Notes: generated by a model from the sequence alone, not told the origin. A stretch of 64,000 bases of DNA from Candidatus Latescibacterota bacterium (GCA_965242865.1 CBDETK010000013.1:3584001-3648000), one strand, 5' to 3'; positions 5,517-58,526 are shown, counted from the stretch's first letter. Numbers and translations are program-made.

Positions 5517-5517
5517 G

Positions 5518-31580: not shown

Positions 31581-32474
31581 TTAAATTAGATTCTTACTCT
31601 GAATAAAACTGCGAAACCCGTTACGATTACAATAGTCCATCAAAAACCAGAAATGATCCCGAATAAGCTGCCATTGCTTTGGGTCCTGTTCTAGGTCTTC
31701 TATCTTCAACTCCAGTTCATCCCTTAAAACTTTACTACTAATTCCTCTTCCATGAGACCCCCATCGCTGCTGGTCGTTTAAAGCCTCTGCAATCTTATTT
31801 GCCCGTTCTTCACGCATCTTATCACTCACTGCAATTTTTTGATCCTCTGTCTCTTTCCAATTCCGAAATTTATACTGAACAAGCCATTTCTTTAGTAGAT
31901 CTATAGTAAGATCCTTCGCTAAACGATACATATCTAGCTCTGCAAGATCCAATTTCTGAAGTAGTATCATCTCGGCTGGCGTTATTCCAGGACCTTTCTT
32001 TTTTAACTCTTCATACTGATTTAAATAAGATAGTCCAGAAATATAGCGAGAACTATCAGGAGAAAGTATCTGCGGATCAATAGGGCCTAGTCTCGAAAAA
32101 GAATCCATGAGAATACTATCTCCTGATAATACCAAGACAGTACCCGCAGACATTGCCTTATCTGGAACAGCAAAATGGACCTCTTTATATCTATTACGCA
32201 GAACATCAACTATTCGTTCAACAACCTCTACACTACCACCCCCAGTATCCACAATAAATAAAGCTGTATCTCTATGGTTCTCTATCCGTTCTACGGCCTC
32301 ACGAATCCCAACATCAACTCCTTCCTGGATTGGGCCATAAAGAACAATCACATCTTTATCTACATGCTCCTCAATAGCTTTTAACTTCTCCCCAAGAAGA
32401 TCACGAGCAACAGTATCTACACTAGACGGTGGAGTAAATCTAAGAGCTGATTTATCGCTGGATTCATTCGTCAT
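31581..32474 (-). CDS. SDH-family ClpP-fold serine protease
   Basis: DTGGGSV, AMSAGT, LGPIDPQI, WGSHGRGI. AT-rich gene. Confidence 0.85.
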   Translation of the reverse strand: MTNESSDKSALRFTPPSSVDTVARDLLGEKLKAIEEHVDKDVIVLYGPIQEGVDVGIREAVERIENHRDTALFIVDTGGGSVEVVERIVDVLRNRYKEVHFAVPDKAMSAGTVLVLSGDSILMDSFSRLGPIDPQILSPDSSRYISGLSYLNQYEELKKKGPGITPAEMILLQKLDLAELDMYRLAKDLTIDLLKKWLVQYKFRNWKETEDQKIAVSDKMREERANKIAEALNDQQRWGSHGRGISSKVLRDELELKIEDLEQDPKQWQLIRDHFWFLMDYCNRNGFRSFIQSKNLI

Positions 32475-34667: not shown

Positions 34668-37637
34668 ATGGTTTTGCTGGTGCTGATGCTGGCGGCATGG
34701 ACGCCCGGGCACGCGAGCGAGTGGCTGCAATTGCGCGGCGACCGCCAGATGAGCGGCCGGGCCTCGGGGATCGGTCAAATGCGCCACGGCCCGCCGCAAG
34801 AACGCTGGCGTTACGACATCGCCGCTTGGGAGGGCTATGTGGAAGTAGCCCAGCAGGAGGGCGACGCCTCGGTGGCCTTGCCCTTTGCCGCCCCAGTAGC
34901 TCCCAATTACATCGGCACCCAAGGGCGAGCTTGGGGGGTCGGGCCACCGATTTTTGACCTCGGCGGCGTCGAGGTCGCCATGCCGCTGGACAATGGCTTC
35001 AAAGTGGCCCAGATACTGCCCGGGGAGGCGGGCTTGCAGCGCTTTGAGATGGGAAATTCTTTCAGCGATGGCGGGGCCGCGCCCAAGCAGGGCCGACTGC
35101 TCGCGTACGACCACGGCGAGCCCTGGGTCGTGTGGGAGACCGAGTTCTTTGCCAACACTTGGGATCCCAATGTCTTGGTGGTGGACGTCGATGCAGACGG
35201 CCAACTCGACATCGTCGTGGCCACCCACTACCGCATCCTCGTCTTCGACGGGGCCACCGGAGAAACCAAAATGCAGTTGCAGTACCACGGGTATCGCAAC
35301 TACGGCTGGTTCGGGGCCGCCAACATCGACGACGATCCGTATCCCGAGTTCGGGGTGGTGGCCGATTTTAGCATGCACACCGAGGTCATTGACAACGACG
35401 GGACGGAATTGACCCTGCGCTGGCTGCGCGACATTCAGCCCGACCCAGCGCAATCAACCAAGGTCGTGCGGCCCAAACCGCAGGCCCTAGTGGATGTGGA
35501 CGGCGATGGTCGCTTTGAGCTGGTGTACAGCATCTACAACGATCAAGGCGATGGGCAGTGGCACGTGGTCGGCGTCGATGCGCTCAGCGGCGAGACCCGT
35601 TTTGATTTCCCGCAGCACCATTTGCACGGTATGGCCGATGTGGATGGCGACGGGCGTTTGGAGCTGTTCGTCTCGGCTACGACTGGCGAAGCCCTGCCAA
35701 CGTATGCGCCGCTGGCGGTCTGGTCCTTGACGGCGGGAGCGGCAACCGTGCGCTGGAGCCACGAGCGAGGCCGCTTCAGTACGGTACTGCTGAACCAATT
35801 GCCCCTAGCGGTGAGCACCGGCGCGGCCGACGGACTGCGCACGGTGTCAACCGGCGACGTAGATGGCGATGGCCGGCGCGATTTCTTCGCGCTCGCGCCG
35901 GACGGGGCCGGCGAAGTGTTAGCCGCTTGGGGCAGCGATCACACGGGACGCATCGGACCGCGCTGGTCGGTGCGCGGTCCGGCCGGGATGGCCCTAGAAG
36001 CAGCGGCGGTGGCGGACAACGGGGCGGCCCTGCTGTATCTCAAGGGACGGGGGCTTCCCAGTCAGACGCTGATGCTGGAGCAGGCCTCGGGCGAGTTGCA
36101 CCAGTGGAGCCGCCAAGCATTTACCCCGGCCGGCACACCCGTAGTAGCTGATTTGGAGGGCGATGGCCGGGTGGAGGTGGTCGTGCAGACCGCGACCCAA
36201 GAAGTGCTGTGTCTGCAAGACTGGGGCGAGGGCGAGCCTCAACGGCGGTGGCAGGTGTCAGGTTACGGCCAGACCAACAACGCGCCCCACCACTGGGGCG
36301 TGGTCGCCGCCGATGTAGATGGCGATGGGCACCGGGAAGTACTGGCGGCGCGGGAGGCGGCCAGCGGCAACGCCAGCTTGGTGGCACTCGCGGCCGATGG
36401 CTCCATCCGCTGGCAGACCGAGTTCGTTGGCTTTGACGGCAGCATGCCGATATGGAATTTCAGCGGCCTGTCCTACTGGAGTGCTGGGTACTTTCGCAGC
36501 AACGAGTACATGGATGTATTCGCCAGTCTGCGGCGCGGCAAGTTGGGCAGCGAAGTGGGCTTTTTGCTCGACGGGCGCAGCGGTGAAATCGTCTGGGAAT
36601 CCAATGGTTTCGTCCTGCCCGAGGACGGCAGCGGTCGCAGTCTGGGGGGCCATCCCAGCGCGGCCGGGGATGTGGACGGCGACGGCTTAGACGAGATCGT
36701 GGTGATGTGGCCCGACCGACTACACATCGTCGACGGAGTCACGGGCACGGCGCAGGTGGTGCGCCAAGCTTATGGGTATTCCAACGGCCTCAATCCGCTG
36801 TTTGAGAGCGATTCCTTTGTCGGCTATGCCTTCCCAGCGGTGGTCGATTTATTTGGCGACAGCCGGCCCGAGCTCCTCTGGGGGCACTGCGGCTATTTGA
36901 ACGCCGTTTTGGACAGCCATGGCCAGCGCATCTGGCAGACCCCGTACCGCAACAATACCGAAGTGCAATCGCTGATGGGAGTGGGCGACAGCGATGGCGA
37001 TGGGGCCGCGGAACTACTCGCTTCCACCGCCGAGGGCGTCCGTCTTTTCCAAGCGGCGGATGGCGCGGTTTTGCTGGAGTTCGACGATGGGGTGCGGGCC
37101 TATACAGACGTGGTCTCCGGCGATGTGGACGGCGATGGGCGCGACGAGTTCCTGTTTGGCAGCGGCACCCAGTTGATCTGCGTGGAACAGGCCGAAGGCA
37201 CCCTGCGCCGGGCTTGGACGCTCGAGGTGGAGGGTCGCAGCAGCGACATTGCCTTGGCCGATGTGGATAGGGACGGTTTTCTGGACATCGTGGTGACGAC
37301 CGCGGATGGCTATGTAAAGGTGTATGTGGGGGAAGAGGACGCCACCGCGGTACAGGCTGCGGAGCGGACGCCGCAGAAAACCGATTTACATTTGCCCTAT
37401 CCCAACCCCTTCAACAGTCAAGTGCATATCGATTTCAGCGTGGGACGAGCCGGGATGGTGCGGCTGGAGGTTTTCGGCCCAACGGGACAGCGGGTGAAAA
37501 CGCTCGTGGCGGCGTGGCGCAAACGCGGGGCTTACCGGGTGCGTTGGGACGCGGGCGAACTCGCCAGTGGGGTGTATGTCGTGCGCTTGCAAGCGGGCGA
37601 TACCGTGCAGGAACGCAAGGTGTCGTTGGTCAAGTGA
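34668..37637 (+). CDS. Secreted FG-GAP/VCBS repeat protein with T9SS/FlgD-like C-terminal domain
   Basis: Many DVDGDG repeats. C-terminal YPNPFN...LASGVYVVRL. Confidence 0.85.
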   Translation: MVLLVLMLAAWTPGHASEWLQLRGDRQMSGRASGIGQMRHGPPQERWRYDIAAWEGYVEVAQQEGDASVALPFAAPVAPNYIGTQGRAWGVGPPIFDLGGVEVAMPLDNGFKVAQILPGEAGLQRFEMGNSFSDGGAAPKQGRLLAYDHGEPWVVWETEFFANTWDPNVLVVDVDADGQLDIVVATHYRILVFDGATGETKMQLQYHGYRNYGWFGAANIDDDPYPEFGVVADFSMHTEVIDNDGTELTLRWLRDIQPDPAQSTKVVRPKPQALVDVDGDGRFELVYSIYNDQGDGQWHVVGVDALSGETRFDFPQHHLHGMADVDGDGRLELFVSATTGEALPTYAPLAVWSLTAGAATVRWSHERGRFSTVLLNQLPLAVSTGAADGLRTVSTGDVDGDGRRDFFALAPDGAGEVLAAWGSDHTGRIGPRWSVRGPAGMALEAAAVADNGAALLYLKGRGLPSQTLMLEQASGELHQWSRQAFTPAGTPVVADLEGDGRVEVVVQTATQEVLCLQDWGEGEPQRRWQVSGYGQTNNAPHHWGVVAADVDGDGHREVLAAREAASGNASLVALAADGSIRWQTEFVGFDGSMPIWNFSGLSYWSAGYFRSNEYMDVFASLRRGKLGSEVGFLLDGRSGEIVWESNGFVLPEDGSGRSLGGHPSAAGDVDGDGLDEIVVMWPDRLHIVDGVTGTAQVVRQAYGYSNGLNPLFESDSFVGYAFPAVVDLFGDSRPELLWGHCGYLNAVLDSHGQRIWQTPYRNNTEVQSLMGVGDSDGDGAAELLASTAEGVRLFQAADGAVLLEFDDGVRAYTDVVSGDVDGDGRDEFLFGSGTQLICVEQAEGTLRRAWTLEVEGRSSDIALADVDRDGFLDIVVTTADGYVKVYVGEEDATAVQAAERTPQKTDLHLPYPNPFNSQVHIDFSVGRAGMVRLEVFGPTGQRVKTLVAAWRKRGAYRVRWDAGELASGVYVVRLQAGDTVQERKVSLVK

Positions 37638-37770
37638 GCCGGCGCGGAGCAGAGATCCCAAAGACCCGTCTGAAACCGATAGCAAGCGGCGCATTGACAA
37701 CTCAGATGGAGGAAATGTGTGGCCCCGTATCTTATGAAGGGACACGACAGGCGAGTGGGGGCAACGGGGC

Positions 37771-37799
37771 TTGACCCGATGCGAGGGATACGATACACT
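37771..37799 (+). promoter_or_regulatory. Sigma70-like promoter of the PT-like operon
   Basis: TTGACC-N17-TACACT. Confidence 0.5.
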
Positions 37800-37916
37800 G
37801 AGTCTAACAGCTTACTTGGATGAGACGGCATCGGTTTCCTTGGTTGGTAAGCCATGCCTCCTTTACTAAGGGCCTGTCTTTATTTAGCCGCTTTACGGAA
37901 AAACGATCTCCGACTC

Positions 37917-39146
37917 ATGTATCCCGTTTATTTGGACTATGCCGCAACGACGCCTGTCGACCCGCAGGTCATCGCGGTGATGACCCAGTACCTAGGGCTG
38001 GATGGGACGTTCGGCAACGCAGCGTCGCGTTCACATCGCTTTGGACAAGAAGCCGGGGCGGCAGTGGAGAAGGCACGGAATCAGGTGGCCCAACTCATCA
38101 ACGCTGACCCGTCCGAGATCGTTTGGACATCGGGAGCCACCGAATCCGTCAATTTAGCTATCAAGGGCGTAGCGCATGGATATGCCCATCGAGGCAAACA
38201 TATCGTAACCTCAAGTCTGGAGCACAAAGCGGTTCTGGCTTCATGCGATAAACTAGCTCGTGAAGGATTCAAAATTACCTATATCAGCCCTAATCAGGAC
38301 GGTCTAATCTCCCCAGAACTCGTGAAGGAAGCGATGAGAGACGACACCATCCTCGTCTCCCTTATACACGTGAACAACGAAGTCGGGACCATCACCGACG
38401 TCAATGCGATCAGCGAAATAACTCGCACTCAGGGGATACCACTCCATGTGGACGCTGCTCAAAGCGTCGCTCGTTTATCGCTTGATACACGCTCTGTGAA
38501 AGCGGATCTTATTTCACTTAGCGGCCACAAGATGTACGGGCCAAAGGGCGTCGGAGCACTCTACGTGCGACGCTGCTGGCCCCGTGTCCAAATCGAACCT
38601 CAAATACATGGCGGCGGCCAAGAACAGGGCATCCGCTCGGGGACATTGGCAACACATCAACTAGTCGGCATGGGCGAGGCCGCACAATTGATATGTGAAC
38701 GTCGAAACCGCGATGTTGAAGCTATCGCCGAACTCGATCGCCGCTTGCTTGATCGTCTTGCAGATATTGAGCATACCTTCATAAACGGCAACAGTGCGAA
38801 CCGCGTTTCAGGAATCGTGAACGTAGGATTCGCTTGTGTCGAGAGTGAGTCCCTGATGATGTCGTTGAAGGACGTTGCTATCTCATCCGGCTCGGCCTGT
38901 ACGTCATCCCGCGTTGAGCCTTCCCATGTATTGCGGTCTTTAGGCTTGCCCGAGGATCTCGCAAGCTGCTCAGTCCGCTTCAGTCTCGGACGATTCACGA
39001 CTGAAGAAGAAGTCGACTTTGCTGTGTCATGCGTCCGGAACTCCGTTGACGCCTTGCGCCAATTGTCCCCCCAATGGCGAGCACTTCGCCGAAGGGACCA
39101 TGGCACCAACCCGTACTCTCTGGTACGGCCGGCAGTGATGACATGA
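37917..39146 (+). CDS. dndA: Cysteine desulfurase (IscS/DndA-like)
   Basis: YLDYAATTP, SGHKMYGPKG, SSGSACTS. ATGA overlap with dndC. Confidence 0.85.
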   Translation: MYPVYLDYAATTPVDPQVIAVMTQYLGLDGTFGNAASRSHRFGQEAGAAVEKARNQVAQLINADPSEIVWTSGATESVNLAIKGVAHGYAHRGKHIVTSSLEHKAVLASCDKLAREGFKITYISPNQDGLISPELVKEAMRDDTILVSLIHVNNEVGTITDVNAISEITRTQGIPLHVDAAQSVARLSLDTRSVKADLISLSGHKMYGPKGVGALYVRRCWPRVQIEPQIHGGGQEQGIRSGTLATHQLVGMGEAAQLICERRNRDVEAIAELDRRLLDRLADIEHTFINGNSANRVSGIVNVGFACVESESLMMSLKDVAISSGSACTSSRVEPSHVLRSLGLPEDLASCSVRFSLGRFTTEEEVDFAVSCVRNSVDALRQLSPQWRALRRRDHGTNPYSLVRPAVMT

Positions 39147-40333
39147 ACGAGCACACCCAACAGAGATCCGGCGCAAGCGATAGCCATAGTGTCGTCGAGC
39201 GGCTCGACGACACTATGGACATCATTCGGAGGGAGTACTTGCGTAAGCATCTCGACCCGTGGGTAGTGGCCTATTCTGGTGGAAAAGATTCGACCTTGCT
39301 TCTCCAACTGATATGGGAGGTGTTGGCACCGCTTCCTGCCCATTCGCGGCGGCGCAAGGTCTATATAGTAGGCAATGATACGCTAGTCGAGTCGCCGCTG
39401 GTCATCCGACATCTCAAAACTACCATATCGACGATCAGCACCGCTGCCGCCGCGAACGAACTGCCGATCGAGACGCAGATCACGAGGCCGCATATCGATC
39501 AAACTTTCTGGGTCAACGTGATTGGACGTGGCTACATTCCCCCGACACGAAATTTCCGATGGTGTACCGATCGAATGAAAATTGTCCCAACTAGCCAATT
39601 ACTCGAAAATCTTGTTCGTACGCACAAGCGTACTGTGCTATTGGTGGGAACGCGCAAGAGTGAGTCCGAGAACCGCCGCCGCAACATGGCAAAGCACGGC
39701 GTTTCGGCAACCAAGATGAATCCTCACAGTTCTGTCGAGGGGTGCCGTATCTTCGCACCGCTCGCCGAATTCAAAGACGAGGATGTGTGGCTGATCCTAA
39801 TGCAACGAAGGCCACCATGGGGAGGCTCGCATCGCGATCTAATCACTCTGTATCGGAACGCTGGTGGAGGGGAATGCCCGCTGGTACTGACCAAGGACGA
39901 TGCACCCTCATGTGGAACAACCTCACCTAGGTTCGGTTGCTGGACATGTACCGTCGTCAGTAAAGATCGGAGCTTGCGCGGCTTAATCGATTCTGGCCAC
40001 GAAGATGCAGAGGTTTTCACACGTCTCTTCGACTTCCGTGAGCGGCTGGTCCAACTCCGCGAAGACGATGCAAACCGTCAGCGCGTACGGCGAGATGGAA
40101 ACTTGAAATCCCGTGCCGACGGAACTCCTGTCATGGGACCTTTCAAACTCGATGTCCGCAAGCGTATTCTGAGTGAATTGCAGGCTTTGCAACAAGAAAT
40201 AGCACAACAGCTAATTACCGAATCAGAACTCGACGTCATCGAGGACATCTGGCGTCGAGACCAAATTCGCCAAGACTGTCGTTCGGCCCTAGACGAAGCG
40301 ATTACTCCTAATCCTGAAGGAGCTTCGGCTTGA
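39143..40333 (+). CDS. dndC: DNA phosphorothioation sulfurtransferase (PAPS-reductase fold)
   Basis: AYSGGKDST, RWCTDRMKI, GTRKSES, GECPLV, SCG...RFGCWTCTVV. Confidence 0.9.
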   Translation: MNEHTQQRSGASDSHSVVERLDDTMDIIRREYLRKHLDPWVVAYSGGKDSTLLLQLIWEVLAPLPAHSRRRKVYIVGNDTLVESPLVIRHLKTTISTISTAAAANELPIETQITRPHIDQTFWVNVIGRGYIPPTRNFRWCTDRMKIVPTSQLLENLVRTHKRTVLLVGTRKSESENRRRNMAKHGVSATKMNPHSSVEGCRIFAPLAEFKDEDVWLILMQRRPPWGGSHRDLITLYRNAGGGECPLVLTKDDAPSCGTTSPRFGCWTCTVVSKDRSLRGLIDSGHEDAEVFTRLFDFRERLVQLREDDANRQRVRRDGNLKSRADGTPVMGPFKLDVRKRILSELQALQQEIAQQLITESELDVIEDIWRRDQIRQDCRSALDEAITPNPEGASA

Positions 40334-42126
40334 CAAAGCAATCTCAGACTGTTATCGGGGCAGAAGCGATGTTGTTTTCGGATCTGTTCCAACAGGGCCG
40401 TTTCGATGTCCCGTGGCATCAGCGCTATTACGATTGGCAGCAGAGCGATGTCCATGCACTACTCCACGACATCAATGATGCGATCAAGGAAAGCCGCGAC
40501 TGCTACTTCCTAGGTGCCATCATGCTCGTAACGGTTGGACAACGACGGTGGGAGATAAACGATGGCCAACAACGAATGGTAACGATATCGTTGATTTGCG
40601 CCGCGCTTTGCCGCCGGTTCGTACATAAAGCAAAGGGTTCGCAACGGGAAGGACTCGCGTTAAGGATGCTGTTCGACCTTGATGCCCAAAGGACATGGAT
40701 CATAGACAACACAGATCGTTACACCCCTCGGATTTTTCCGGCGAAGAATGACGCTATGCCATATCGCCAAATGATTCGTGGGAACCCGATTAGGGCCAAC
40801 GGTCCACTCACTGCCGCATGGACAGAGATCGAGAGCTTCTTCTCTCCCATGAGTTACGAGGAATCAGAACGGTATTTCGACTTTCTTCTTGAGAAGCTCG
40901 AAGTAGCATGTCTGCGGGTTCCACCGCACATCGATCCGAACGCCGTATATGAGACAATCAACTGTAGAGGTAAGCAACTAGACGACTTGGACCTCATCCG
41001 CAATTATCTATATTCGCATTTTAACTCGGAAAGCGATTCCGAGAGAAAAAATTCGGTGCATGAAAATCTAGAGAAAATCCGAACAATTATTCCTAGCTCT
41101 AAGAAAGCATCCGAATACATGCGGTGCCACCTACAGTGCAAATTCGGCTTTCTACGCAAGGATCACTTCTACCGCGACGCACGGGACGCTATCCGTACCC
41201 AGAGGGACAGAAGACACGGAACGACTGAGCTTTTAGCGGATTATACGTTCAACTTGATTGAACAAATCACCTCTCCCGAGTCTTTGGAACTCTTCCGAAC
41301 GCTAGCGGCGGCGACTCCCGACCCTGACTTTATCCGCGAATTCAGAGTGGCTTCAGGCACAACTAACTCTCCTAGGAATTTGGCGGTTTTTCTTCGAGAA
41401 TTGCGCAGATATACAATTACTCAGCCCTTGATATTTGCCATGTTGACTCGGTGGGTTCAAGAATCGGATGGCCGCAAAAAGAAACGGATTGCGCGAATTG
41501 CCAATAGAAATCTGAGTCGTCTAGCGACTTTCGTCCTCAGAACAGCGTTCATTACACCCAAGTTTGAGCCGTCTCACTTTGAATCTGAGTTCTCGAACTA
41601 TGCAAAGAATATCGCAGCAGCCGACGATATTCCTGATGACGAATTCGCTAATTTCTTACAGAGTTGCGATCGGTCGGCGCATGCACATGGAGTGCTAGAC
41701 GACTCCAAATTTCTGGACGAGATGGTTGAGGCTAGAATGACCGCTCACCCGAAAATCAAGCAGCTCCTACTCGGGATCAACGGTGCCATACAGGGCGACG
41801 CACAGCTATTCATTGAACGAGATTGCAATGTGGAGCACATACTTCCAAAGTCTCCGCAGCATTGGAGTGGCTGGAGTAGCTTCAATGACGTCGATAGATC
41901 CGAATGGGTCCACCGGATCGGAAACTTGACACTAATGGGACCGGCGGACAATAGGCCCGGGGAGAAATATAACGGTAATTTCGCGAAGAAACGTGAGAGC
42001 TATCAAGACAGTAGTATCATGCTTACACGTAGCCTAAGCCAATATGATGACTGGAGTCCGGCTAATATCGAAATCAGGCAGCGAGAAATGGCAAAACTGG
42101 CAGTTCGTGTATGGAAGTTTGTTTGA
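40330..42126 (+). CDS. DUF262-DUF1524 (GmrSD/SspE-like) nuclease
   Basis: QRYYDW, DGQQR, ETINCRG; HNH-type VEHILP...IGNLTL...N. Confidence 0.88.
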   Translation: MTKQSQTVIGAEAMLFSDLFQQGRFDVPWHQRYYDWQQSDVHALLHDINDAIKESRDCYFLGAIMLVTVGQRRWEINDGQQRMVTISLICAALCRRFVHKAKGSQREGLALRMLFDLDAQRTWIIDNTDRYTPRIFPAKNDAMPYRQMIRGNPIRANGPLTAAWTEIESFFSPMSYEESERYFDFLLEKLEVACLRVPPHIDPNAVYETINCRGKQLDDLDLIRNYLYSHFNSESDSERKNSVHENLEKIRTIIPSSKKASEYMRCHLQCKFGFLRKDHFYRDARDAIRTQRDRRHGTTELLADYTFNLIEQITSPESLELFRTLAAATPDPDFIREFRVASGTTNSPRNLAVFLRELRRYTITQPLIFAMLTRWVQESDGRKKKRIARIANRNLSRLATFVLRTAFITPKFEPSHFESEFSNYAKNIAAADDIPDDEFANFLQSCDRSAHAHGVLDDSKFLDEMVEARMTAHPKIKQLLLGINGAIQGDAQLFIERDCNVEHILPKSPQHWSGWSSFNDVDRSEWVHRIGNLTLMGPADNRPGEKYNGNFAKKRESYQDSSIMLTRSLSQYDDWSPANIEIRQREMAKLAVRVWKFV

Positions 42127-43526
42127 CGTCTGACTTGCGATACCTTCGCCGTTTCGCAGAAAGCCAACTCGGCGTTCCCGCGACGCTCCACAATTACCAG
42201 TGGGAGGGTATCGCGTTTTTGTATCGATCTCGCTCTGCCCTCCTCGCTGACGAGATGGGGCTGGGGAAAACTGTCCAGACTGCGGTAGCACTAGCACTTC
42301 TCTTGAACGGACAGAGCGAGGTACGCCGGGCCTTGATCGTCGCACCCGCATCGCTGACGACGAACTGGATGATGGAGATCTCGACTTGGGCACCATCAGT
42401 GGCGACGCGGCGCGTACAGGGTACTGTACGCGACCGTAAAGCGTTTTACCTACTGCCAATCCCTGTCCTCGTGAGTTCTTACGAGCAAATTCGATTCGAT
42501 GGCTTGGACCGGATTCCCTCGGATACCTTCGATCTCGTGATTCTTGATGAGGCCCAACGAATCAAAAACAGGGATTCCACTACTGCATTAGCCTGCCGGC
42601 TCCTGCCGCGCAAACGTGCTTGGGCGTTGTCTGCTACACCTCTCGAAAACGACGAAAATGATATTGTATCTATTCTCCGTTTCCTCGACCCGTCGGTTGG
42701 ACGAGAGCTTTCTAAATCGTACTTGGTCAAAAAATTGGAGTCGATGATGCTTCGCCGGCGAAAGTCTGGCGTTCGTACTGAACTGCCGCCAGTTATATTC
42801 CAAGACTTGAAAATCGAACTCTCAGTACCGCAGAGAACAAGGTACGACGAACTATGGGTAAATCGCACCCAGACCATCATTAAAAACTCATCTGACGGAG
42901 ATCGCAGCACCGCGTTGCTTGGGCTCATCACACGACTGAAGATTATCTGTAATTTCGATGCACCCGCGAACGCCTCGTCAAAATTGGACGCTCTGAAGAC
43001 GATTAGCGAAGGGGTCGGAAATTCTGCTCGCATTCTTGTATTCTCGCAGTTCGTCGAAACTCTACGATGGATTTCGGATAGGATTGAACTTCCGCACGAC
43101 CTCTTGACAGGATCAATGTCGCTTGCCGAGAGGCAGATTGCCATAAACCGGTTTAGGACCGGGGCTACGCCTCGGGGACTTATGGTATCTCTTCGGGCAG
43201 GAGGCGTGGGCTTGAACTTGGGAGAGGCGACGCACGTCGTGCTCTTCGACAGGTGGTGGAATCCCGCAGTCGAGGTCCAAGCGATCTATCGAGCTCATCG
43301 CTTTGACCGAGAGGAGCCATTACACGTTATTCGTTTCCTCGTAGCCGATTCGATCGAGGAGCGCATCGAAACGATACTTGAACAAAAGAAATGTCTGTTC
43401 GATGAAGTAATCGAATCCGCGGAAACACCTACTCATCGCTTCACAAAGGAGGAACTGATGCAGATTTTGGAACTTACAACCGGAGACATCTTTCTGGCGC
43501 ACACACACAAAAAAGAGGAGATCTAA
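42111..43526 (+). CDS. Stand-alone SNF2-family helicase/ATPase
   Basis: LADEMGLGKT, DEAQRIKN, SATPLEN, AGGVGLNL, WWNPAVEVQA. Confidence 0.92.
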   Translation: MEVCLTSDLRYLRRFAESQLGVPATLHNYQWEGIAFLYRSRSALLADEMGLGKTVQTAVALALLLNGQSEVRRALIVAPASLTTNWMMEISTWAPSVATRRVQGTVRDRKAFYLLPIPVLVSSYEQIRFDGLDRIPSDTFDLVILDEAQRIKNRDSTTALACRLLPRKRAWALSATPLENDENDIVSILRFLDPSVGRELSKSYLVKKLESMMLRRRKSGVRTELPPVIFQDLKIELSVPQRTRYDELWVNRTQTIIKNSSDGDRSTALLGLITRLKIICNFDAPANASSKLDALKTISEGVGNSARILVFSQFVETLRWISDRIELPHDLLTGSMSLAERQIAINRFRTGATPRGLMVSLRAGGVGLNLGEATHVVLFDRWWNPAVEVQAIYRAHRFDREEPLHVIRFLVADSIEERIETILEQKKCLFDEVIESAETPTHRFTKEELMQILELTTGDIFLAHTHKKEEI

Positions 43527-43530
43527 AGTC

Positions 43531-44355
43531 ATGGCAAAGATCGTTGAGTATAAAGATATTCCGCTCGATAACCTGACCATTGGAAAAGGGCAGGCACGGG
43601 TCCAAGACGTCGGCAAGGAAATTGAAGACTTGGCCGAAAGCATCAAAGTGCAAGGACTGCTACAGCCGATTGTAGTCTGTCCAGCGAGGGATGCGGGTAA
43701 GTGGGAGATTCTCACAGGCCAGCGGCGGTTCTTGGCACATAAGGATCTGAGCCGGGAAAGCATCACGGCAGCCATTCTTGACGAACGAGTTGAAGAGCAC
43801 GAAGCCAAGGCCATCTCGATTACCGAGAATCTTATTCGGCGAAAGCTCTCCGGAAAAGATCTTATCGACGGAGTCACTTACCTGTACAACGCCTATGGAG
43901 GAAATGCAAAGGCTGTAACGGAAGCTACGGGCTTGTCCTACAAAAACGTGCGGGATTACGTGAAGTACCCGCGGTTGGCATCCAAGTTGAAAGAGATGGT
44001 TGATGAAGGGCAAATCGGTGTCAATGTCGCCCTAAAGGCGCAAGATGCTGCCACTAAGGACGACGGAGAGACAGACATTGATGTCGCTACTAAATTAGCC
44101 CAAGAAATGGAACAAATGACGGGCCCCCAACGCACAAAATTTTCTGAGGAATTTAAGAAAAACCCTGCCAAACCAATTGACGACAAAATTGAGGATGCGA
44201 GAACTGGGGCTAGAGTAACGCAGGTAACGGTGACCCACGACACACACAGGGCTATCCGAAGGTTTGCACAAGAAGAAGGTACCAACCAAGACGAGGCGAT
44301 TTCTGCCCTCATCGAAGAAGCACTGATTGGGCGCGGCCTCTTAGAGGAGGAGTAG
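43531..44355 (+). CDS. ParB/Spo0J-family protein
   Basis: LAESIKVQGLLQPIVV, TGQRRFLA, ENLIR, followed by an HTH. Confidence 0.88.
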   Translation: MAKIVEYKDIPLDNLTIGKGQARVQDVGKEIEDLAESIKVQGLLQPIVVCPARDAGKWEILTGQRRFLAHKDLSRESITAAILDERVEEHEAKAISITENLIRRKLSGKDLIDGVTYLYNAYGGNAKAVTEATGLSYKNVRDYVKYPRLASKLKEMVDEGQIGVNVALKAQDAATKDDGETDIDVATKLAQEMEQMTGPQRTKFSEEFKKNPAKPIDDKIEDARTGARVTQVTVTHDTHRAIRRFAQEEGTNQDEAISALIEEALIGRGLLEEE

Positions 44356-44360
44356 AGTCG

Positions 44361-45083
44361 ATGCTGGCCGGGTTGAGCACCTTGGAACTTGCACGCCTTC
44401 GGATGTCCGTGGGTTACGGGACACACAAGAAGGGGCGCCCGTACTCTCCCATAGAGGTGGGATCACTTTTCCGCAAAGCTCGCGACTCAGGTGCATCTCT
44501 CAGGGACTGTGCAACCGAGGCCCGCATCGACGGAACAGGCGTCGGTCGTTTTTTACGAATTCTCGACCTACCGCACGATCTTCGACATCTAGTTGATTGG
44601 GGATCTGGCAAGGACGCTATCGGCTTTTCGTCCGCTATTGAGTTGGTACGGCTTCAGGATCTTGACGATCAGCGTATCGTCGCTAGTTCGATCCTCGCAG
44701 ATGGCCTCAATGGAAAAGAGGTCCGACAGGTCGTACAACTTAGAATGCGTTCGGAGCGTCCTATTTGCACATGCCTAAAGGAAATCTTAGGTATGCGTCC
44801 AGTAATCGAAAGACGCTACGTCTTCATCGGTTCGGTTGTTGATCAGAATGTCGAGGACGCTCTCATAGAACTCACGCAGACGGAGAGAGATTCGATTCTT
44901 GAGTCGGGTATCAAACTTCTCAACATCCGAGGAGCGTCTGGTCGGCTCGGAAAGCGATTCTTCACACTAGTCGGAAACGAGGGCTTTGATGCGTCAATGA
45001 AGAGCATTGGCAAGGAGAGCATTGAGGCGCGGCTTCGAACCCACATCTCGGAGACTGTTGAGAATGCCCGACCCCATTGTTGA
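44361..45083 (+). CDS. Hypothetical protein (possible HTH, ParB C-terminal-like)
   Basis: RBS GAGGAG. SPIEVG...CATEARIDGTGVGRFLRILDLP helix-turn-helix-like segment. Confidence 0.6.
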   Translation: MLAGLSTLELARLRMSVGYGTHKKGRPYSPIEVGSLFRKARDSGASLRDCATEARIDGTGVGRFLRILDLPHDLRHLVDWGSGKDAIGFSSAIELVRLQDLDDQRIVASSILADGLNGKEVRQVVQLRMRSERPICTCLKEILGMRPVIERRYVFIGSVVDQNVEDALIELTQTERDSILESGIKLLNIRGASGRLGKRFFTLVGNEGFDASMKSIGKESIEARLRTHISETVENARPHC

Positions 45084-46095
45084 CGTTCTTGAGAGTGGTG
45101 CCGTCTGCCTCGGGTCAAAAGTAGTGTGTGATGGTTTCGCCGAAGGATACCCTTTCCGCGTCCAGACACATATCCACGATGACCACATGGGCGAGTTCGA
45201 CAAGAGCAAGGGCTTTCAGGATTTTCTGATGAGTCCAGAAACGTATGCACTTCTGGTAGAGGAACGCAATGCAGACCTTGAGTTCCGTGACAATATTCAC
45301 CGAGTAAATCGAGGCGACGAGCGTGTGCTCGACGACGGCTCGAAGCTATCCCTTCTTCCCTCCAACCACATGCTCGGCTCATGTCAAGTCGCACTGGAAT
45401 TACCCGACGGCCTCCGAGTCGGCTATTCAAGTGACTTCGGCTGGCCCCTCAATGAGGTTATTCAAGTCGACGAGCTCGTTGTGGACAGCACCTATGGGAG
45501 TCCCAGAAGCGTACGCCGCTACACCCAAGCGGAAGCGGAGGAGTGTCTGTTAAACCTCGTATGCGAGCGATTGCGACATGGTTCTGTGCATGTCAAAGCT
45601 CACAGAGGAACTATCGAGCGCGTGTTGCATGTACTCGGGGTCAACGTAGGGGTTCCGATTTTGGCCAGCGAACGACTCATTGGGGAAGTGAAGGTCTATC
45701 AGAATCACGGATCCGCTATCGGGGACCTATACGCACTCGACTCGGACGCAGGTCAATCTGCCATGAGGGAACGAGCCTATATTCGACTGTATTCAAAGGG
45801 AGATGGTTTAGGCAACGAACCAATCGGCGAAACGAGCGTCACATGCAGCGCGTACATGGCCAATGCCGATGATCCGCTGGTGACATATTCTGATCGGGCT
45901 TATAGGGTGGCGTTATCTAATCATGCGGACTTCAATGAAACGCTTGAGTACGTTAAGGCGACGAGGGCCAAGAAAATTGTCACGGATAACACACGAAACC
46001 ACGGAGTGGATTTGGCCACCGCCATCAATGAGCGTCTCCCGGGCGTACAGGCTCATCCATCAACGAATAACCCCGGACATAATCCATATCGTTGA
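45064..46095 (+). CDS. Metallo-beta-lactamase-fold (beta-CASP-like) nuclease
   Basis: THIHDDH, NHMLGS, YSSDF, VDSTYG, SNHADF. Confidence 0.8.
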   Translation: MPDPIVDVLESGAVCLGSKVVCDGFAEGYPFRVQTHIHDDHMGEFDKSKGFQDFLMSPETYALLVEERNADLEFRDNIHRVNRGDERVLDDGSKLSLLPSNHMLGSCQVALELPDGLRVGYSSDFGWPLNEVIQVDELVVDSTYGSPRSVRRYTQAEAEECLLNLVCERLRHGSVHVKAHRGTIERVLHVLGVNVGVPILASERLIGEVKVYQNHGSAIGDLYALDSDAGQSAMRERAYIRLYSKGDGLGNEPIGETSVTCSAYMANADDPLVTYSDRAYRVALSNHADFNETLEYVKATRAKKIVTDNTRNHGVDLATAINERLPGVQAHPSTNNPGHNPYR

Positions 46096-46177
46096 AGACC
46101 GAAGGTAATTAAGACGCGGACATGGCCTACAGCAATTCACATGGCCCGTCTATGTACCTTCCTCAAAGGAGCGATGC

Positions 46178-49126
46178 CTAGTCCGCATCCGCCGGTCCTA
46201 CGGCGGCCTCATGGTGCTCTCTGAGCAGTTCGTCAAGGGCCTTGGAGGTATCCAAGTAATTGGACCATTCGTACGGCGTGATGCCAAAGCGCAGATCCCC
46301 TACCAATGGGTTCGCGCCCCGCGCCAAGAGCAGGCGAGCCATCGCTAGCTGATCGGCCATGACGGTTTTGTGCAGCGGCGTACTGCCGCGATCGTACCGG
46401 CTAAACCCACCGGCCAACCCGTTAATATCCGCGCCGCGATCCAACAAAAACTCCGCCGCTTCCAACGCGCCACTATAAGCCGCAAAATTGAGTGCTTCCA
46501 CCATAATCTGATCGGCGGTGAGCACGGTGTCCGGGTCCGGGTGGTAGAGGTGTCCGGTTCCTTCTTTCAACTTGTCCTCTGGGTCGAAGAACTCGGCCAT
46601 CAGGTCAATGCGGTTGACGCCCGCGGCAAAGCGCAAATCCACGGTCGCTCCCTCGGCTACCAACATGTGCGCCAAATCTAGGTCCCTCTCCCTAAGCGCG
46701 TTCCATAACATTCGGCCCCGGTTGCGGTTCACATCCACGCCGTTGGACACTAGGAGCTGGATCATTTCGGGCTTGCTCTCGGCCCATTCGAGCTGATCGC
46801 TTTCTACGAACAGATCCAGCACGGCGACCGAGTCGTACGTGGCGGCGTTGGGGTCGGCTCCTGCTGCGAGTAACGCCGCGGCGAGTTCAACCGCGTTTGC
46901 CGGCAACGGCACTCGCTGTGGCTCGCCGGCTAGGTGGTGCAAGAGCGTGGCCCCGCGAAAGTGCGGGTATTCGTAATACTCGTCGAAATAGCCGCGGGCT
47001 GTCGTTAGCTTGGGGTGTTCTGCCAGCAACTTTTGCAGGGCCTCGGCGTCGCCGGCATCAATGGCTGCTACCGCCTCGTAATAGGCGTTGTAGTTGGCAT
47101 CGCCGCGGTCTCGGCCTTGGGGCGGCAGTCTTTCTCCCTCGCGGGGAATGGCCAAGGCGACCAATTCGGGCGGACGCCTTCGGTTGCCCAGCGGCACGAC
47201 CACGAACTGACGACCGCCAGCCGTGTAGCTCATCGGCGCACCGTAGGCGTTGCTAGGCAATTCGACGCGGCCAATCTGTTCGCCGGACGCCAAATCGTAT
47301 CCCCGCAGTGACGCATCGCGATCGACGAAGTAATCCTCGCCCGCGTCGGCTAGGCCGTGGGGGTCTTCGGAAGTGGCCAACAGAAGGTTCGGCGTGGCCA
47401 AGACGAAGGTGCGGTTGGCCCAGCCCATATACGGCAGGTCGAGGTCCTTGAGAGCCGGATGATCGACCGGACCTTTGCCCACCGTCGTCCGCCAGATATG
47501 CTCGCCGCTGTTGAGGTCAATCGCCGTGATGCTGCCGTAGGGCGGCTTGACCAGCGGCAGACCCCGAGGGCCAGCGACATACTCGTCAACGCGAGCAGAA
47601 AACGCCGAGTGTGCTTCTGGGTTCTCTACCGGGCGCAACTCCACGGTGGTGATGGCCTTATGCGACGGCACGTACAGGACGCCGGTGCGCGGATCGGCCG
47701 CACCGCCCGCCCAGTCCGCACCACCCCTTTGACCGGGGACTGACAAGACGCCCTTCTCGGTCGGCGGCGTGTAGAGCGGACCGTAGTCATACTCAGCGAG
47801 AATGGCCTTAGCCTCCTCCCGCAACTCCGGCGTGAAGTCAATCAGATCGTCCTCGCTGATGCCTTGATGTTCAAAGGCCGCCGGTTTGGTCGGAAAGGGC
47901 TGCGTCGGCGCGGTCTGTTCGCTTGGCACCTGCGACTGCGGCACCGGCTTTTCGACAATCGGCCAAATCGGTTCGCCGGTGACGCGGTCAAAGACGAAGC
48001 AGAAAGCCTGTTTAGTCAGTTGGACGACGACCTTGCGCGCTTGACCATCGACGACCACGTCCAACAGAAGGGGCGCAGCCGGCGGGTCGTAATCCCACAG
48101 GCCGTGGTGAACCAACTGATAGTGCCACACCCGCTCGCCGGTCGCGGCCTTGAGACAGACCACCGACTCGCTGAATAGGTTGTCGCCGGGGCGCTCGCCG
48201 CCGTAGTAGTCGTGGCTGGCCGTGCTCACCGGCAGGTAGAAGTAGCCCAATTCCTCGTCGGCGGTCATCGTCGCCCATACATTGGCCGCACCGTATTTCT
48301 TCCACGCCTCGTTTTCCCACGTTTCGTTGCCGTATTCGCCCTCTAACGGAATCGTGTGAAACTCCCACACCTTCGCGCCGGTCCGCACGTCAAACGCTTG
48401 CACATCGCCGGGAGGCGTGTACTCGGCCGGCGGCCGACCACGCACATCTAAGATCGCCGAGCCAACAGCCACCACATCGCGACACACCACGGGCGGTGCC
48501 GTAACTCCGTAGCCTCTGCGCTCTCTTTCGCCCAGCGGCCGACGCAGCAAGGCACCCAAATCGACGCGCCCGCCCTCGCCAAAATTCGGATCTGGGACGC
48601 CGGTCTTGGCGTCGATGGAATACAGATGGGCGGTCGAAGTGGCCAGAAACACCCGCTCAACCTCGCCATCGGTCCAATAGCTCACCCCGCGCGAATTGCC
48701 CAAGAAAAAGGAACCAGCCTTCCAAGCCTCTGGGTCGAAAGCCCATAGCTCCTCGCCACTTTGGCCGTCAATGGCCGAGAGGATGTTGAAGGGCGAGCCA
48801 TAGTAGAGCACGCCGTTCACGGCCAGCGGCGTGGCGCGGTGATTGTCGAAACGGAGGCGGGAACGACCGCGCCGCCGACCACCCCGGCCCCGATCCCGGC
48901 TTCGGCTAGCATTGGCCGCCTCATAGATCTGCTGATCGCGGGGGCGATAACGCCAGATTACGCGCAACTGATCGAAGTTGTCGCGATTGATCTGATCGGC
49001 CGGAGTGTAGCGGGTGCCGCCTCGGTCAGCAGCGTAGTACGGCCAATCAACCTCACCGGCAAACGCCGCGAGTGCGAACGACAGCGACAACAAGATCGAC
49101 GAGGTCCTACAGGCGCGTTTATTCAT
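46178..49126 (-). CDS. PQQ-dependent (glucose/quinate-type) dehydrogenase fused to ankyrin repeats
   Basis: RYTPADQIN, HHGLWDYD, PPYGSITAIDL; C-terminal GADPNA, GADIN, TPLHK, GANP. Confidence 0.85.
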   Translation of the reverse strand: MNKRACRTSSILLSLSFALAAFAGEVDWPYYAADRGGTRYTPADQINRDNFDQLRVIWRYRPRDQQIYEAANASRSRDRGRGGRRRGRSRLRFDNHRATPLAVNGVLYYGSPFNILSAIDGQSGEELWAFDPEAWKAGSFFLGNSRGVSYWTDGEVERVFLATSTAHLYSIDAKTGVPDPNFGEGGRVDLGALLRRPLGERERRGYGVTAPPVVCRDVVAVGSAILDVRGRPPAEYTPPGDVQAFDVRTGAKVWEFHTIPLEGEYGNETWENEAWKKYGAANVWATMTADEELGYFYLPVSTASHDYYGGERPGDNLFSESVVCLKAATGERVWHYQLVHHGLWDYDPPAAPLLLDVVVDGQARKVVVQLTKQAFCFVFDRVTGEPIWPIVEKPVPQSQVPSEQTAPTQPFPTKPAAFEHQGISEDDLIDFTPELREEAKAILAEYDYGPLYTPPTEKGVLSVPGQRGGADWAGGAADPRTGVLYVPSHKAITTVELRPVENPEAHSAFSARVDEYVAGPRGLPLVKPPYGSITAIDLNSGEHIWRTTVGKGPVDHPALKDLDLPYMGWANRTFVLATPNLLLATSEDPHGLADAGEDYFVDRDASLRGYDLASGEQIGRVELPSNAYGAPMSYTAGGRQFVVVPLGNRRRPPELVALAIPREGERLPPQGRDRGDANYNAYYEAVAAIDAGDAEALQKLLAEHPKLTTARGYFDEYYEYPHFRGATLLHHLAGEPQRVPLPANAVELAAALLAAGADPNAATYDSVAVLDLFVESDQLEWAESKPEMIQLLVSNGVDVNRNRGRMLWNALRERDLDLAHMLVAEGATVDLRFAAGVNRIDLMAEFFDPEDKLKEGTGHLYHPDPDTVLTADQIMVEALNFAAYSGALEAAEFLLDRGADINGLAGGFSRYDRGSTPLHKTVMADQLAMARLLLARGANPLVGDLRFGITPYEWSNYLDTSKALDELLREHHEAAVGPADAD

Positions 49127-49274
49127 CGGATTTTCCTTTTCCGTGCTGGGTGCCGCTTCAAGGCTTCGCGCAGTTACCGTAGGGCGTGAGGCGTCTCGCC
49201 CCAGCGCACGGTGCCGATCAAGGAGCCGCGCTCCGACGGTCAAGTAGCGGCATCCTAGCGGGTGCCCGCCTTCT

Positions 49275-49905
49275 CTACTGCGGCCTTCATGGTGCGCTCT
49301 AAGCAACTCGTCGAGGGCCTTAGAGGTATCTCAACTGGGCCATCTCTAGCTGATTGGCCATGAAGGTTTTGTGCAGGGGTTTAGTAACTAATGGTGCTAG
49401 TATGTTGACCGTGGTCAAAGTAGTTCCTACGCTGAGGGTATCTCACCTTTCAGCCAAGGAGCGTCCTGATGACCACGGCCGAGTTTATAATAGCCCTGTT
49501 TTACCGAATCGACAATCAGATGCTTGCCGTGCCCAAACACCCGCAAGCGTCCTTATATCCGAGTGAGGTAGTCACTTTAGGGGTGTTGTATGCGCTCAAA
49601 GGCGGGGGTAAACGGGCATTTTACCACGGGCTGGTGCGGGACTGGCAGGCTTGGTTCCCGCGCCTGCCGTCGCGCACCCGCTTGTTCCGCCTCTTCGCCG
49701 CTCATGCCGATTGGACCGACCGCTTCCGAGCGGAGCCGACGACATTGGGAGTGGTCGACAGCTATGGCATTGAGTTGCGCCATCCGGTGCGTCAAGGCCG
49801 GGCGCAGCACGCCATTGGGAAGAAAGGGCTATCCAATCACCGTTGGATCAAAACACTAGCACCATTAGTTAGTACAGTGGTCGAAGCGGTGGAACCCAGT
49901 AGCAA
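49275..49905 (-). pseudogene. Relic 3' end of a paralog of the PQQ-ankyrin gene, interrupted by an IS
   Basis: With the IS removed it reads FATGFHRFDHCTKPLHKTFMANQLEMA, versus LAGGFSRYDRGSTPLHKTVMADQLAMA in the intact gene. Confidence 0.7.
49387..49869 (+). mobile_element. Internally deleted IS (IS982/IS5-like DDE) with 15-bp TIRs and 5-bp TSD
   Basis: TIRs ACTAATGGTGCTAGT / ACTAGCACCATTAGT. TAGTA at 49382-86 and 49870-74. Transposase N-terminus starts at 49469. Confidence 0.85.
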
Positions 49906-57003: not shown

Positions 57004-57176
57004 TTTGTACCCTCGTTAATCTTAATCTCTTAAAAATAACAAATCTGCCTCAAATCAGGCTATGCTTCTACCTCGATAGGAGAGTTTTGGATAATATGCT
57101 CTTTTCCCGCGAAAACGGGAATCCAGCCGGTATCGTTTAGACGCAAAGGACAACCATCAGAGTTTTCAGACAGCTT

Positions 57177-57288: not shown

Positions 57289-57297
57289 AGACAGCTT

Positions 57298-58517: not shown

Positions 58518-58526
58518 TTTTTCCTC

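Follow-up and report, generated by a model that had tools for sequence, protein, structure and literature searches.

A stretch of 64,000 nucleotides from the genome of a Candidatus Latescibacterota bacterium (GCA_965242865.1, CBDETK010000013.1:3584001-3648000), hereafter the window, harbours seven genes predicted to participate in phosphorothioate (PT) modification of DNA and in restriction linked to it. Open reading frame (ORF) calling placed all seven on the + strand, within positions 37854-46095, and their coordinates are given in Table 1. Judged by sequence comparison across genomes, the genes are organised in two separable modules and not in a single seven-gene system. Module A (g1-g3) encodes a DndA-type cysteine desulfurase, a short DndC and a GmrSD-family protein. 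Module B (g4-g7) is a cassette encoding an SNF2-family ATPase, a ParB/Noc-like protein, a second DNA-binding protein with a ParB-type helix-turn-helix (HTH), and a beta-CASP nuclease.

The initial annotation, made from the sequence alone, described seven co-oriented and tightly packed genes of lower GC content than their flanks, and the ORFs and refined gene starts bear this out. Taken in order from g1 to g7, consecutive genes overlap by 4, 4 and 16 nt, are separated by gaps of 4 and 5 nt, and overlap again by 20 nt. The GC content per gene is 0.489-0.543, compared with 0.642 and 0.624 in the flanking genes. The start of g1 was set at the ATG at 37917, and the Aminotran_5 match starts at residue 25 of the longer ORF. 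The start of g2 is M24 of its ORF, which gives 93% identity across the entire 400-aa homologue P0001 and forms an ATGA overlap with the stop of g1. Gene g3 begins with TTG, with an alternative ATG at 40369. Alignment with six orthologues sets the start of g7 at M20, and the protein collection contains a called 343-aa protein identical to it. The sigma70-like promoter also proposed for the locus was dropped as evidence; promoter-like sites numbered 4 in the region versus 6.3 +/- 2.2 in shuffles, and the hexamers in Table 1 were given no weight because such sites are no commoner than in shuffled sequence. No Rfam family was detected in 37000-46600.

Table 1. Features of the PT-related island in the window (positions counted from the first letter of the window).
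Feature	Position	Strand	Evidence
g1, IscS/DndA-type cysteine desulfurase (pyridoxal phosphate (PLP), class V)	37917-39146	+	Aminotran_5, NF010611
g2, short DndC, 396 aa, PP-loop sulfurtransferase	39143-40333	+	TIGR03183
g3, GmrSD-family, DUF262 NTPase + DUF1524 HNH nuclease, DndI/HEC-06-like	40330-42126	+	GmrSD_N, GmrSD_C
g4, SNF2-family ATPase, motor core alone, 471 aa	42111-43526	+	SNF2-rel_dom, Helicase_C
g5, ParB/Noc-like, ParB N-terminal NTPase domain + HTH	43531-44355	+	ParB_N, TIGR00180
g6, ParB-type HTH DNA-binding protein without ParB N-terminal domain	44361-45083	+	HTH_ParB, fold comparison
g7, beta-CASP metallo-beta-lactamase-fold nuclease, 343 aa	45064-46095	+	HxHxDH, profile + Foldseek
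Whole island, 8549 bases	37647-46195	.	Absent from closely related strain
Promoter-like hexamers TTGACC-17-TACACT, weak	37771-37799	+	9/12 match

The product of g1 matched Aminotran_5 in Pfam (E 6.9e-84) and scored 571 bits on the IscS subfamily NF010611 (cut-off 548), which identifies it as a desulfurase. On the DndA equivalog TIGR03235 it reached 416.6 bits, under the cut-off of 480, and on the PADLOC models of SspA and DndA 519 and 514 bits, respectively. Two other IscS/NifS-like genes, scoring 493 and 427 bits, are present in the window's genome, so that g1 is a dedicated extra desulfurase copy.

Gene g2 is the sole DndC in the window's genome. It passes the DndC equivalog TIGR03183 with 346.5 bits (cut-off 290.4), but covers profile positions 8-362 of 447 alone. 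On the PADLOC DndC model it scored 388 bits, compared with 26.6 bits for SspD and 48.5 bits for BrxP. Aligned with the long DndC P0129 (483 aa), g2 matches along residues 6-374 and is without about 105 C-terminal aa, and the PP-loop and all cysteine motifs are common to both. There is no variation among 25 sequences in the SGGKDS motif or in Cys141, 245, 257, 266 and 269. Homologues of about 400 aa form more than 100 clusters at 67-93% identity, and the alignment, which extends across phyla, has a mean column identity of 67%. A sequence search found no solved relative of g2. A near-perfect palindrome (39179-39223; 22-nt arms, 91% complementary, 1-nt spacer) lies 36 nt inside g2, in the variable N-terminal part, and may serve as an operator or form a translational hairpin.

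A scan with one genome per species yielded 566 DndC relatives, the best 80 of which were kept. All 79 measurable loci among them encode a short DndC, ending at most 24 residues past the match. The close clade consists of 24 genome loci (L003-L026) with 57-71% DndC identity, whose record titles span at least eight phyla. In 23 of these 24 loci a GmrSD gene directly follows DndC, as it also does in three metagenome loci (L091, L092 and L116). None of the 24 has DndD or DndE beside DndC, and 15 have a DndA-like gene upstream of it. The minimal writer of DndA and DndC paired with a GmrSD-like nuclease, as proposed in the initial annotation, is thus a conserved arrangement.

Two alternative sets of genes were found after GmrSD in the close loci. 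The first, a GIY-YIG protein (about 110 aa) and a DndB-like protein (about 425 aa), is present in 14 out of the 24. The second is the SNF2 cassette, present in eight: six copies are complete, the one in L014 runs into the contig end, and that in L020 is truncated. L006 has the cassette together with a DndB-like match, L007 has other genes, and L022 has no GmrSD match. From these gene orders, the constant core is DndA-DndC-GmrSD, to which the SNF2 cassette is added as one of two alternatives. The initial proposal of one seven-gene system does not agree with this, as the core is constant and the cassette optional, being swapped for GIY-YIG plus DndB-like in those 14 loci. L020 (14377-14769) is nearly identical to L021, but its ParB gene encodes only 130 aa, and the 10 kb of flank revealed neither an HTH nor a beta-CASP gene; the cassette has apparently decayed there.

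Among the distant loci (L029-L082; 43-52% DndC identity), 45 out of 54 encode a DndD/PbeC-like ATP-binding cassette (ABC) ATPase of about 690 aa and/or a DndE-HerA/FtsK fusion of about 510 aa, and L055 has GmrSD in place of DndD/E. Eight distant loci (L033, L037, L041, L045, L053, L062, L070 and L073, at about 10000-15000) show the order short DndC, ATPase of about 690 aa, and then a 510-aa DndE-HerA/FtsK fusion. A quick maximum-likelihood tree was calculated with 21 long DndC representatives as outgroup, omitting L028, a contig of 1.8 kb. Support is given as the Shimodaira-Hasegawa-like approximate likelihood ratio (SH-aLRT). In this tree, the short DndC rows group in a single clade (SH-aLRT 99). 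Inside it, the GmrSD-linked DndC form a clade of 26 rows (SH-aLRT 99), or 28 with L055 and L074 (94), and its sister group comprises 52 rows (93), 45 of them with DndD/E. Within the GmrSD clade, at least 3-4 switches of add-on have taken place and members of different phyla intermingle, which argues for horizontal spread of this clade. An early branch of the DndD/E-less clade, L027 (11134-13373), carries DndC and then an HNH_4 protein (377 aa) in place of GmrSD, and its opposite strand encodes a protein weakly matching nucleoside 2-deoxyribosyltransferase.

The locus had been described as lacking DndB, DndD, DndE, SspB and SspC, and this held, also when the search was extended to dndD and dndE elsewhere in the genome. 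In the window's genome, the best DndD match reached 20.4 bits against a cut-off of 245.85; DndE was not found with TIGR03184 or PF08870, although PF08870 matches were obtained in G004 and G005; and DndB (PF14072) was not found either. SspB (PF13182, DUF4007) was not found in a search of the same genome whose controls stayed silent, and no SspC was present in a scan of the locus. Neither DndD nor DndE is present in G001-G003, three chromosome-level genomes that have the cassette form, and the positive control G005 has both. In five chromosome-level genomes with the GIY-YIG/DndB form (G046-G050), searched for DndD only, no match was over the cut-off. DndD is thereby absent from eight out of nine chromosome-level carrier genomes. 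Rakesh et al. (PMC10853773) ascribe missing DndD/E to poor assemblies in the section concerned. The chromosome-level genomes without these genes argue against that explanation for this DndC clade.

A short DndC without DndD/E could also be an enzyme that does not phosphorothioate DNA, either thiolating another substrate or surviving as the remnant of a decaying dnd locus. Rakesh et al. treat DndD/CxC with DndE as an obligate core that is non-functional otherwise (PMC10853773), isolates lacking minimal sets showed no PT according to Yuan et al. (PMC12914056), and the missing C-terminal tail of g2 would be in line with decay. However, the equally short DndC of the sister clade works beside DndD/E, so the shortness of g2 is not a sign of decay. 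The strong conservation of DndC given above also stands against a remnant, as do the intact frames and motifs of the operon and the retention of a dedicated desulfurase, and there is a precedent for a single-gene writer in tdpC, which alone is enough for PT synthesis as stated in PMC12914056. We therefore consider a g2 inactive on DNA quite improbable.

The predicted reader, g3, matched GmrSD_N (2.5e-21) and GmrSD_C (5.6e-23) in Pfam. It shows the architecture of the DndI family, namely DUF262 with DGQQR followed by a DUF1524 HNH domain in about 600 aa, and none of 25 sequences deviates in DGQQR, E502-H503, G531-N532 or N548. Among solved structures, its best match is DndI (9JFL; E 7.6e-11, 44.5 bits). 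Against PADLOC, g3 scored 243 bits on HEC-06 (PDLC04157; E 1.2e-72), with residues 16-596 aligned to profile positions 14-556 of 558, 166 bits on 'Orf5', and 51 bits on SspE, the last over about 90 N-terminal residues of models of 766 aa. Aligned to 9JFL with HMMER, g3 does not conserve Tyr25, the PT-sensing residue of DndI, and has His30 at this position, with Trp29 adjacent; among 25 orthologues, W29 and H30 hardly vary. Another residue of g3 could take the PT-sensing role in place of Tyr25.

These features leave room for g3 to be an independent restriction enzyme, of type IV or stand-alone like HEC-06, that is merely embedded here, with the writer using another partner or PT serving redox or epigenetic control. 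HEC-06 is the best PADLOC match of g3, over its full length and far above DndI in score, and in the preprint account it defends alone without PT, its DGQQR and EH motifs being required (10.1101/2024.01.29.577857). GmrSD-like genes are also described as often embedded in other systems (10.1101/2024.01.29.577857; PMC12839542), and the loss of Tyr25 points the same way. Nonetheless, the linkage of GmrSD to this DndC clade is near-obligate, in the 23 genome loci and in all three metagenome loci of that type, and GmrSD occupies the position where the sister clade keeps DndD/E. The junctions from g1 to g3 are of few bases, and DndC and GmrSD are correlated in their distance matrices (Mantel r 0.70, reached by 0 out of 2000 permutations). 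This correlated divergence fits co-inheritance and is not proof of contact. With this linkage, an embedded and unrelated g3 seems unlikely to us.

The cassette genes belong to families whose domain calls in the initial annotation proved right, including beta-CASP for g7. The product of g4 matched SNF2-rel_dom (1.7e-42) and Helicase_C (1.8e-19) in Pfam and carries GLGKT (residue 50) and DEAQ (residue 146). Judged by the best 25 of its 39 PADLOC matches, it fits the DpdE, ZorD and DrmD models in their helicase cores alone; on DpdE the match is to the core alone, for example positions 697-1172 of 1176. The product of g5 matched ParB_N (1.6e-14), not DndB, and scored 76 bits on TIGR00180 (cut-off 58.45). 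Its profile matched the Noc and ParB CTPase clamps in the PDB (7ol9, 7.8e-17; 7bnk, 4.3e-15), and box II and III, GQRRFLAH and ENLIRR, are invariant in seven sequences, so that by sequence it carries the GxxRxxA and ENLxR motifs of ParB/Noc. A ribbon-helix-helix-like reading of the g5 C-terminus was dropped, as no PDB sequence match was obtained.

For g6, HTH_ParB was matched below cut-off (E 0.0057), and the orthologue in L022 reached 27.2 bits (cut-off 22.6). Its profile gave weak ParB matches among solved structures (E 0.039), and the nearest Atlas cluster is a 'ParB HTH domain-containing protein' (score 0.94). The predicted structure (predicted local distance difference test (pLDDT) 88.6) superposes on Spo0J (1vz0_A) with Z 12.1 and a root-mean-square deviation of 2.2 over 105 residues, on the ParB DNA-binding domain with Z 11.6 and on that of KorB with Z 9.7. 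The last 90 aa or so (residues 150-240) gave Z 6.1 or less and no clear fold match. Foldseek returned no match for g6 at E <= 1e-3, and no longer fused forms of g6 were found, which is weak evidence. A paralogy of g5 and g6 is not claimed (profile comparison E 0.057, probability about 1%).

The HxHxDH motif of g7 (THIHDDHM) is invariant. The closest NCBIfam match is the ligase-associated exonuclease TIGR04122 (E 4e-14, below cut-off). The g7 profile matched beta-CASP families exclusively: aCPSF1 (1.8e-9), FttA, CPSF3, SNM1A, RNase J and Cas14. Foldseek gave 129 matches at E <= 1e-3, and among the 50 matches listed all are beta-CASP nucleases. The structure model has a pLDDT of 63 overall, with residues 1-102 below 50. 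In the Atlas, g7 is closest to MBL/RMMBL clusters (0.97) and ligase-associated exonuclease clusters (0.95). Motif and modelled fold together predict a beta-CASP nuclease. The family has 1034 members at E <= 1e-3, and the sole source-given name among them is 'putative mRNA 3-end processing factor'. No g7 beta-CASP protein was found in the plasmid, phage and viral-contig collections. PADLOC v2 has no models for g6 and g7, and g5-g7 gave no match to the PADLOC models of known PT restriction modules. The folds and the nucleotide- or metal-binding motifs of g5, g6 and g7 match ParB/Noc/KorB clamps and SNM1A/CPSF/RNase J beta-CASP nucleases. Such proteins act in chromosome and plasmid segregation, transcription control, DNA repair and RNA processing. 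To our knowledge, neither these clamps nor these nucleases are known in any PT system.

A metagenome scan with the beta-CASP alignment recovered 134 relatives, 80 of which were kept. SNF2, ParB, HTH and beta-CASP genes were all present in this order, SNF2 first, in 45 of the 80 loci, and most of the others are short contigs. Thirty-five of the 45 are assessable, having 3 kb of flank or more on one or both sides. PT-writer genes lie beside the full cassette in 33 out of these 35, and in 16 out of 16 with flank on both sides. The writer is of the DndD/E type in 26 loci, DndC-GmrSD in three (the metagenome loci named above), and of the Ssp type in two; in two others DndC was the one writer gene found, and in the remaining two none was found. 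In the Ssp-type loci (L148 and L150, about 1700-11000), a DUF4007 protein (PF13182 286.8 bits in L148), a 1152-aa protein and a 282-aa 3'-phosphoadenosine-5'-phosphosulfate (PAPS) reductase (PAPS_reduct) are encoded directly upstream of the cassette. A co-oriented PT gene lies within 700 bp of the cassette in 22 of the 45 loci, and in five (L093, L094, L097, L098 and L099) the cassette sits between dndE and dndA. The cassette, which the initial annotation took as accessory or effector parts of a minimal writer, is not peculiar to that writer, with 26 of the 35 beside canonical DndC-DndD-DndE and two beside SspBCD.

We favour a role of the cassette in restriction of unmarked DNA. The main rival would have the cassette maintain or control PT-bearing DNA, for instance by processing nicks or oxidised PT, or by tuning the access or expression of the writer as DndB does. 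The closest NCBIfam match of g7 is an exonuclease of the ligase-associated DNA damage response, with Atlas clusters of that type close behind its best, DndB, of the ParB superfamily, is described as a regulator of dnd (PMC10853773), the alternative add-on of the sister loci includes a DndB-like protein, and the insertion between dndE and dndA places the cassette inside the writer operon in five loci. Yet a motor, a nuclease and DNA-binding proteins are the usual make-up of a restriction effector, and the cassette is optional, being absent from 14 of the 24 core loci. It also moves among three unrelated writer types, like known PT restriction modules (PMC8092258, PMC6459918), and in the window it is part of an island that varies between strains. 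A maintenance or control role is thus in our view improbable, and restriction of unmarked DNA is preferred.

The variation between strains was observed in run X4, where a contig at depth 327 connects position 37646 to 46196, omitting the 8549 bases of the island with 84 other letters between. This island-free contig differs from the window at 60 letters over 2647 flank bases. Compared over positions 35000-48000 of the window, the island-bearing contigs in X4 have a depth of about 13, about 25 times lower than the island-free variant, and for this reason the island is carried by a minority strain in that run. In runs X6 and X7, labelled sponge metagenome, depth was present in 29 out of 30 bins of the compared stretch, and about two thirds of the records on it are at least 95% alike. 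Of the 22 runs listed, none with the stretch is an RNA data set. The island is a discrete presence/absence unit.

In two genomes of the same genus (G007 and G015), the same two flanking genes surround a different segment of about 3.1-3.7 kb, which encodes a TauD-like dioxygenase and an HD-domain protein. No close copy of the g2 DndC was found among the 24 same-genus genomes searched; three of the 24 have a long DndC at 40-42% identity, and a genome of the same class (G030) possesses a DndC copy at 65%. No direct repeats bound the island, no tRNA is present within the 64-kb window, and the Pfam scan detected no integrase among the proteins at the locus. Taken together, the stretch is probably a horizontally acquired PT-type restriction-modification island of two modules.

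Other genes in the window were also examined. The flanking gene at 46178-49306 encodes a pyrroloquinoline quinone (PQQ)-dehydrogenase beta-propeller fused to ankyrin repeats and has many paralogues in same-genus genomes (G006-G017); among them, a set with 51-57% identity shows repeated in-frame TGA, usually single, which may reflect recoding, a gene boundary or decay. One flank gene carries a Por_Secre_tail domain. A second GC-poor block lies on the minus strand at 52383-63463 (gene GC 0.40-0.45), and includes two genes of the ABC-transporter ATPase type, a PRMT-like methyltransferase, an asparagine-synthase-like gene and two further ORFs of 351 and 422 aa with no Pfam match; from its gene content, it may be a peptide-modification and export cluster. 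An isolated gene at 31581-32474, minus strand, with a GC content of 0.398, encodes a ClpP-like SDH-type serine protease/NfeD-like protein and adjoins a TonB-dependent receptor gene.

Several described systems resemble parts of the locus. In TdpABC, reportedly presented by An et al. (2025, Nat Chem Biol), TdpA and TdpB are said to be a ring ATPase and a nuclease, and not GmrSD, SNF2, ParB or beta-CASP proteins. By description, TdpABC is similar to the present locus in that a DndC-type enzyme writes PT without DndD/E and the restriction pair is separate (PMC12914056). In IscS-DndBCDE-DndI, a desulfurase and a DndC writer are joined by a PT-reading DUF262 (DGQQR)/DUF1524 (HNH) protein of about 600 aa (PMC11662687). 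In Salmonella enterica Cerro 87, DndI is a 596-aa DUF262+DUF1524 PT-sensing nickase working with DndBCDE (PMC11662687), and a single writer supplies both DndI and DndFGH; the writer of the island may in the same way serve g3 as well as g4-g7. Unlike that system, the island has no DndB, DndD or DndE, its DndC is about 105 aa shorter, and g3 is distant from DndI, with His in place of Tyr25. Moreover, the Salmonella dndI is described in the dndFGH operon and not directly after dndC, whereas g3 directly follows g2.

Similar to SspABCD-SspE, the locus combines a desulfurase, a writer of the PAPS-reductase family and a DUF262/DUF1524 protein of the kind that acts there as PT-sensing nickase (PMC11662687, PMC8092258). 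It differs from Ssp in that g2 fits the DndC model and not that of SspD, and g3 matches the N-terminus of SspE alone. As regards HEC-06, the likeness of g3 consists of the full-length family match and the shared DGQQR and EH-type nuclease motifs. HEC-06 is reported as embedded in Hma systems and as defending without a PT writer, whereas g3 and its orthologues are tied to the DndC clade (10.1101/2024.01.29.577857). The locus has no PLD/SMC-like gene as in PbeABCD, and no Pbe model is among the PADLOC matches listed for g3-g7. No BrxC, PglZ or BrxL match, as for BREX type 4, was obtained among the 12 proteins scanned, and the locus has no TGT-type gene like the DpdA transglycosylase of the 7-deazaguanine system Dpd, in which the ParB-like DpdB and the DpdE helicase are the partners.

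The cassette is comparable to DndFGH, SspFGH and PbeABCD, which are multi-gene modules with a motor ATPase and nuclease-type proteins, located beside writers, patchy and exchangeable (PMC8092258, PMC6459918, PMC10853773). PbeA is described as PLD plus ResIII helicase, PbeC as SMC-like, and PbeB and PbeD as small (PMC6459918). DndH and SspH are FtsK/HerA-like; in the accounts cited, none of the three modules contains a ParB/Noc-type, ParB-HTH or beta-CASP protein, and the cassette has all three. Its composition is likewise absent from the other PT systems compared, namely DndI with DndBCDE, SspE, BREX type 4 and Tdp. Rakesh et al. list HKD, HNH, REase, URI/GIY-YIG, HEPN and PIN nucleases in Dnd neighbourhoods, and their neighbourhood section names neither MBL/beta-CASP nor a ParB-SNF2 set (PMC10853773). 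SNF2 is named there in the context of DndH, and also in a BREX paper (PMC12839542).

Yuan et al. (2026) noted dndC next to a DUF262 gene in silico as a potential new PT system (PMC12914056). Their screen required a P-loop NTPase neighbour and named one Sulfurimonas example, nothing being tested, and the available text mentions no DndD/E-less clade, alternative add-ons or four-gene cassette. Our literature search found no description of an SNF2-ParB-HTH-beta-CASP cassette beside PT genes, though the supplements of PMC10853773 and PMC12914056 may list such neighbourhoods. The DndD/E-less DndA-DndC-GmrSD core has accordingly been noticed in print in passing, and the four-gene cassette was not found described. 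To correct the initial annotation on this point, a DUF262/DUF1524 reader is already known with Dnd in the form of DndI, and the dndC-DUF262 neighbourhood is in print.

We infer PT synthesis, phage restriction by either module and each mechanistic step as follows. In module A, g1 would take sulfur from cysteine and hand it to g2, a PP-loop ATP pyrophosphatase with Fe-S-type cysteines, which would insert it into the DNA backbone without DndD/DndE. The product of g3 would read the PT mark, spare self DNA and nick unmarked incoming DNA, like DndI and SspE, and may also replace the NTPase and nicking functions given elsewhere by DndD/E or SspB/C. Module B would be a second, portable effector cassette linked to PT, following the logic of DndFGH, SspFGH or TdpAB. 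In it, g5 as an NTP-dependent DNA clamp and g6 through its ParB-HTH would locate or scan DNA, the SNF2 motor g4 would translocate, and g7 would degrade DNA without the mark.

Put at its strongest, DndC and a DndI-like GmrSD would, with the desulfurase, form a self-sufficient writer-reader in which the ParB-fold NTPase and HNH nickase of GmrSD replace DndD/DndE, and the cassette would represent an undescribed class of PT-dependent restriction reading the mark from any writer (Dnd, Ssp or DndC-only), perhaps by pairing a sliding ParB-type clamp with an exonuclease stopped by PT linkages. We regard this joint proposal as possible, but tentative. Besides the HEC-06 likeness of g3 and its missing Tyr25, several points weigh against the reading of the island as a two-module PT system in general. 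An ATPase partner (DndD, SspC or BrxC) is held necessary in published work (PMC10853773, PMC12914056), and isolates with a PAPS reductase but no dndD lacked PT signals according to Yuan et al. (PMC12914056). Completeness of the window's genome is 93.6%, with a contamination of 6.8%, and in G004 a separate canonical long DndC-DndD-DndE, at a distance of 43 kb from the short DndC, could provide its functions in trans. The DndC tree comes from a quick search only. As for the cassette, L112 and L166 carry it in full with no writer gene in the available sequence, which has little flank on one side, and by analogy with beta-CASP enzymes that are RNases, g7 may cut RNA.

The locus offers a candidate, open to testing, for an anti-phage restriction module of a new type. 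For the majority of PT writers no restriction partner is known, and for sspBCD modules in particular the share without one is given as 83.9% (PMC8092258). Found beside Dnd, Ssp and DndC-only writers, the cassette is a candidate for the missing partner, and would add a ParB/Noc-type clamp and a beta-CASP nuclease to PT biology. The island, varying between near-identical strains in one run, offers natural material for the study of gain and loss. In the accounts cited, PT systems are held to require an ATPase and a DNA binder in addition to the sulfurtransferase; the conserved and widely transferred DndC clade without DndD/E, together with its GmrSD, provides a three-gene test of minimal PT writing and reading.

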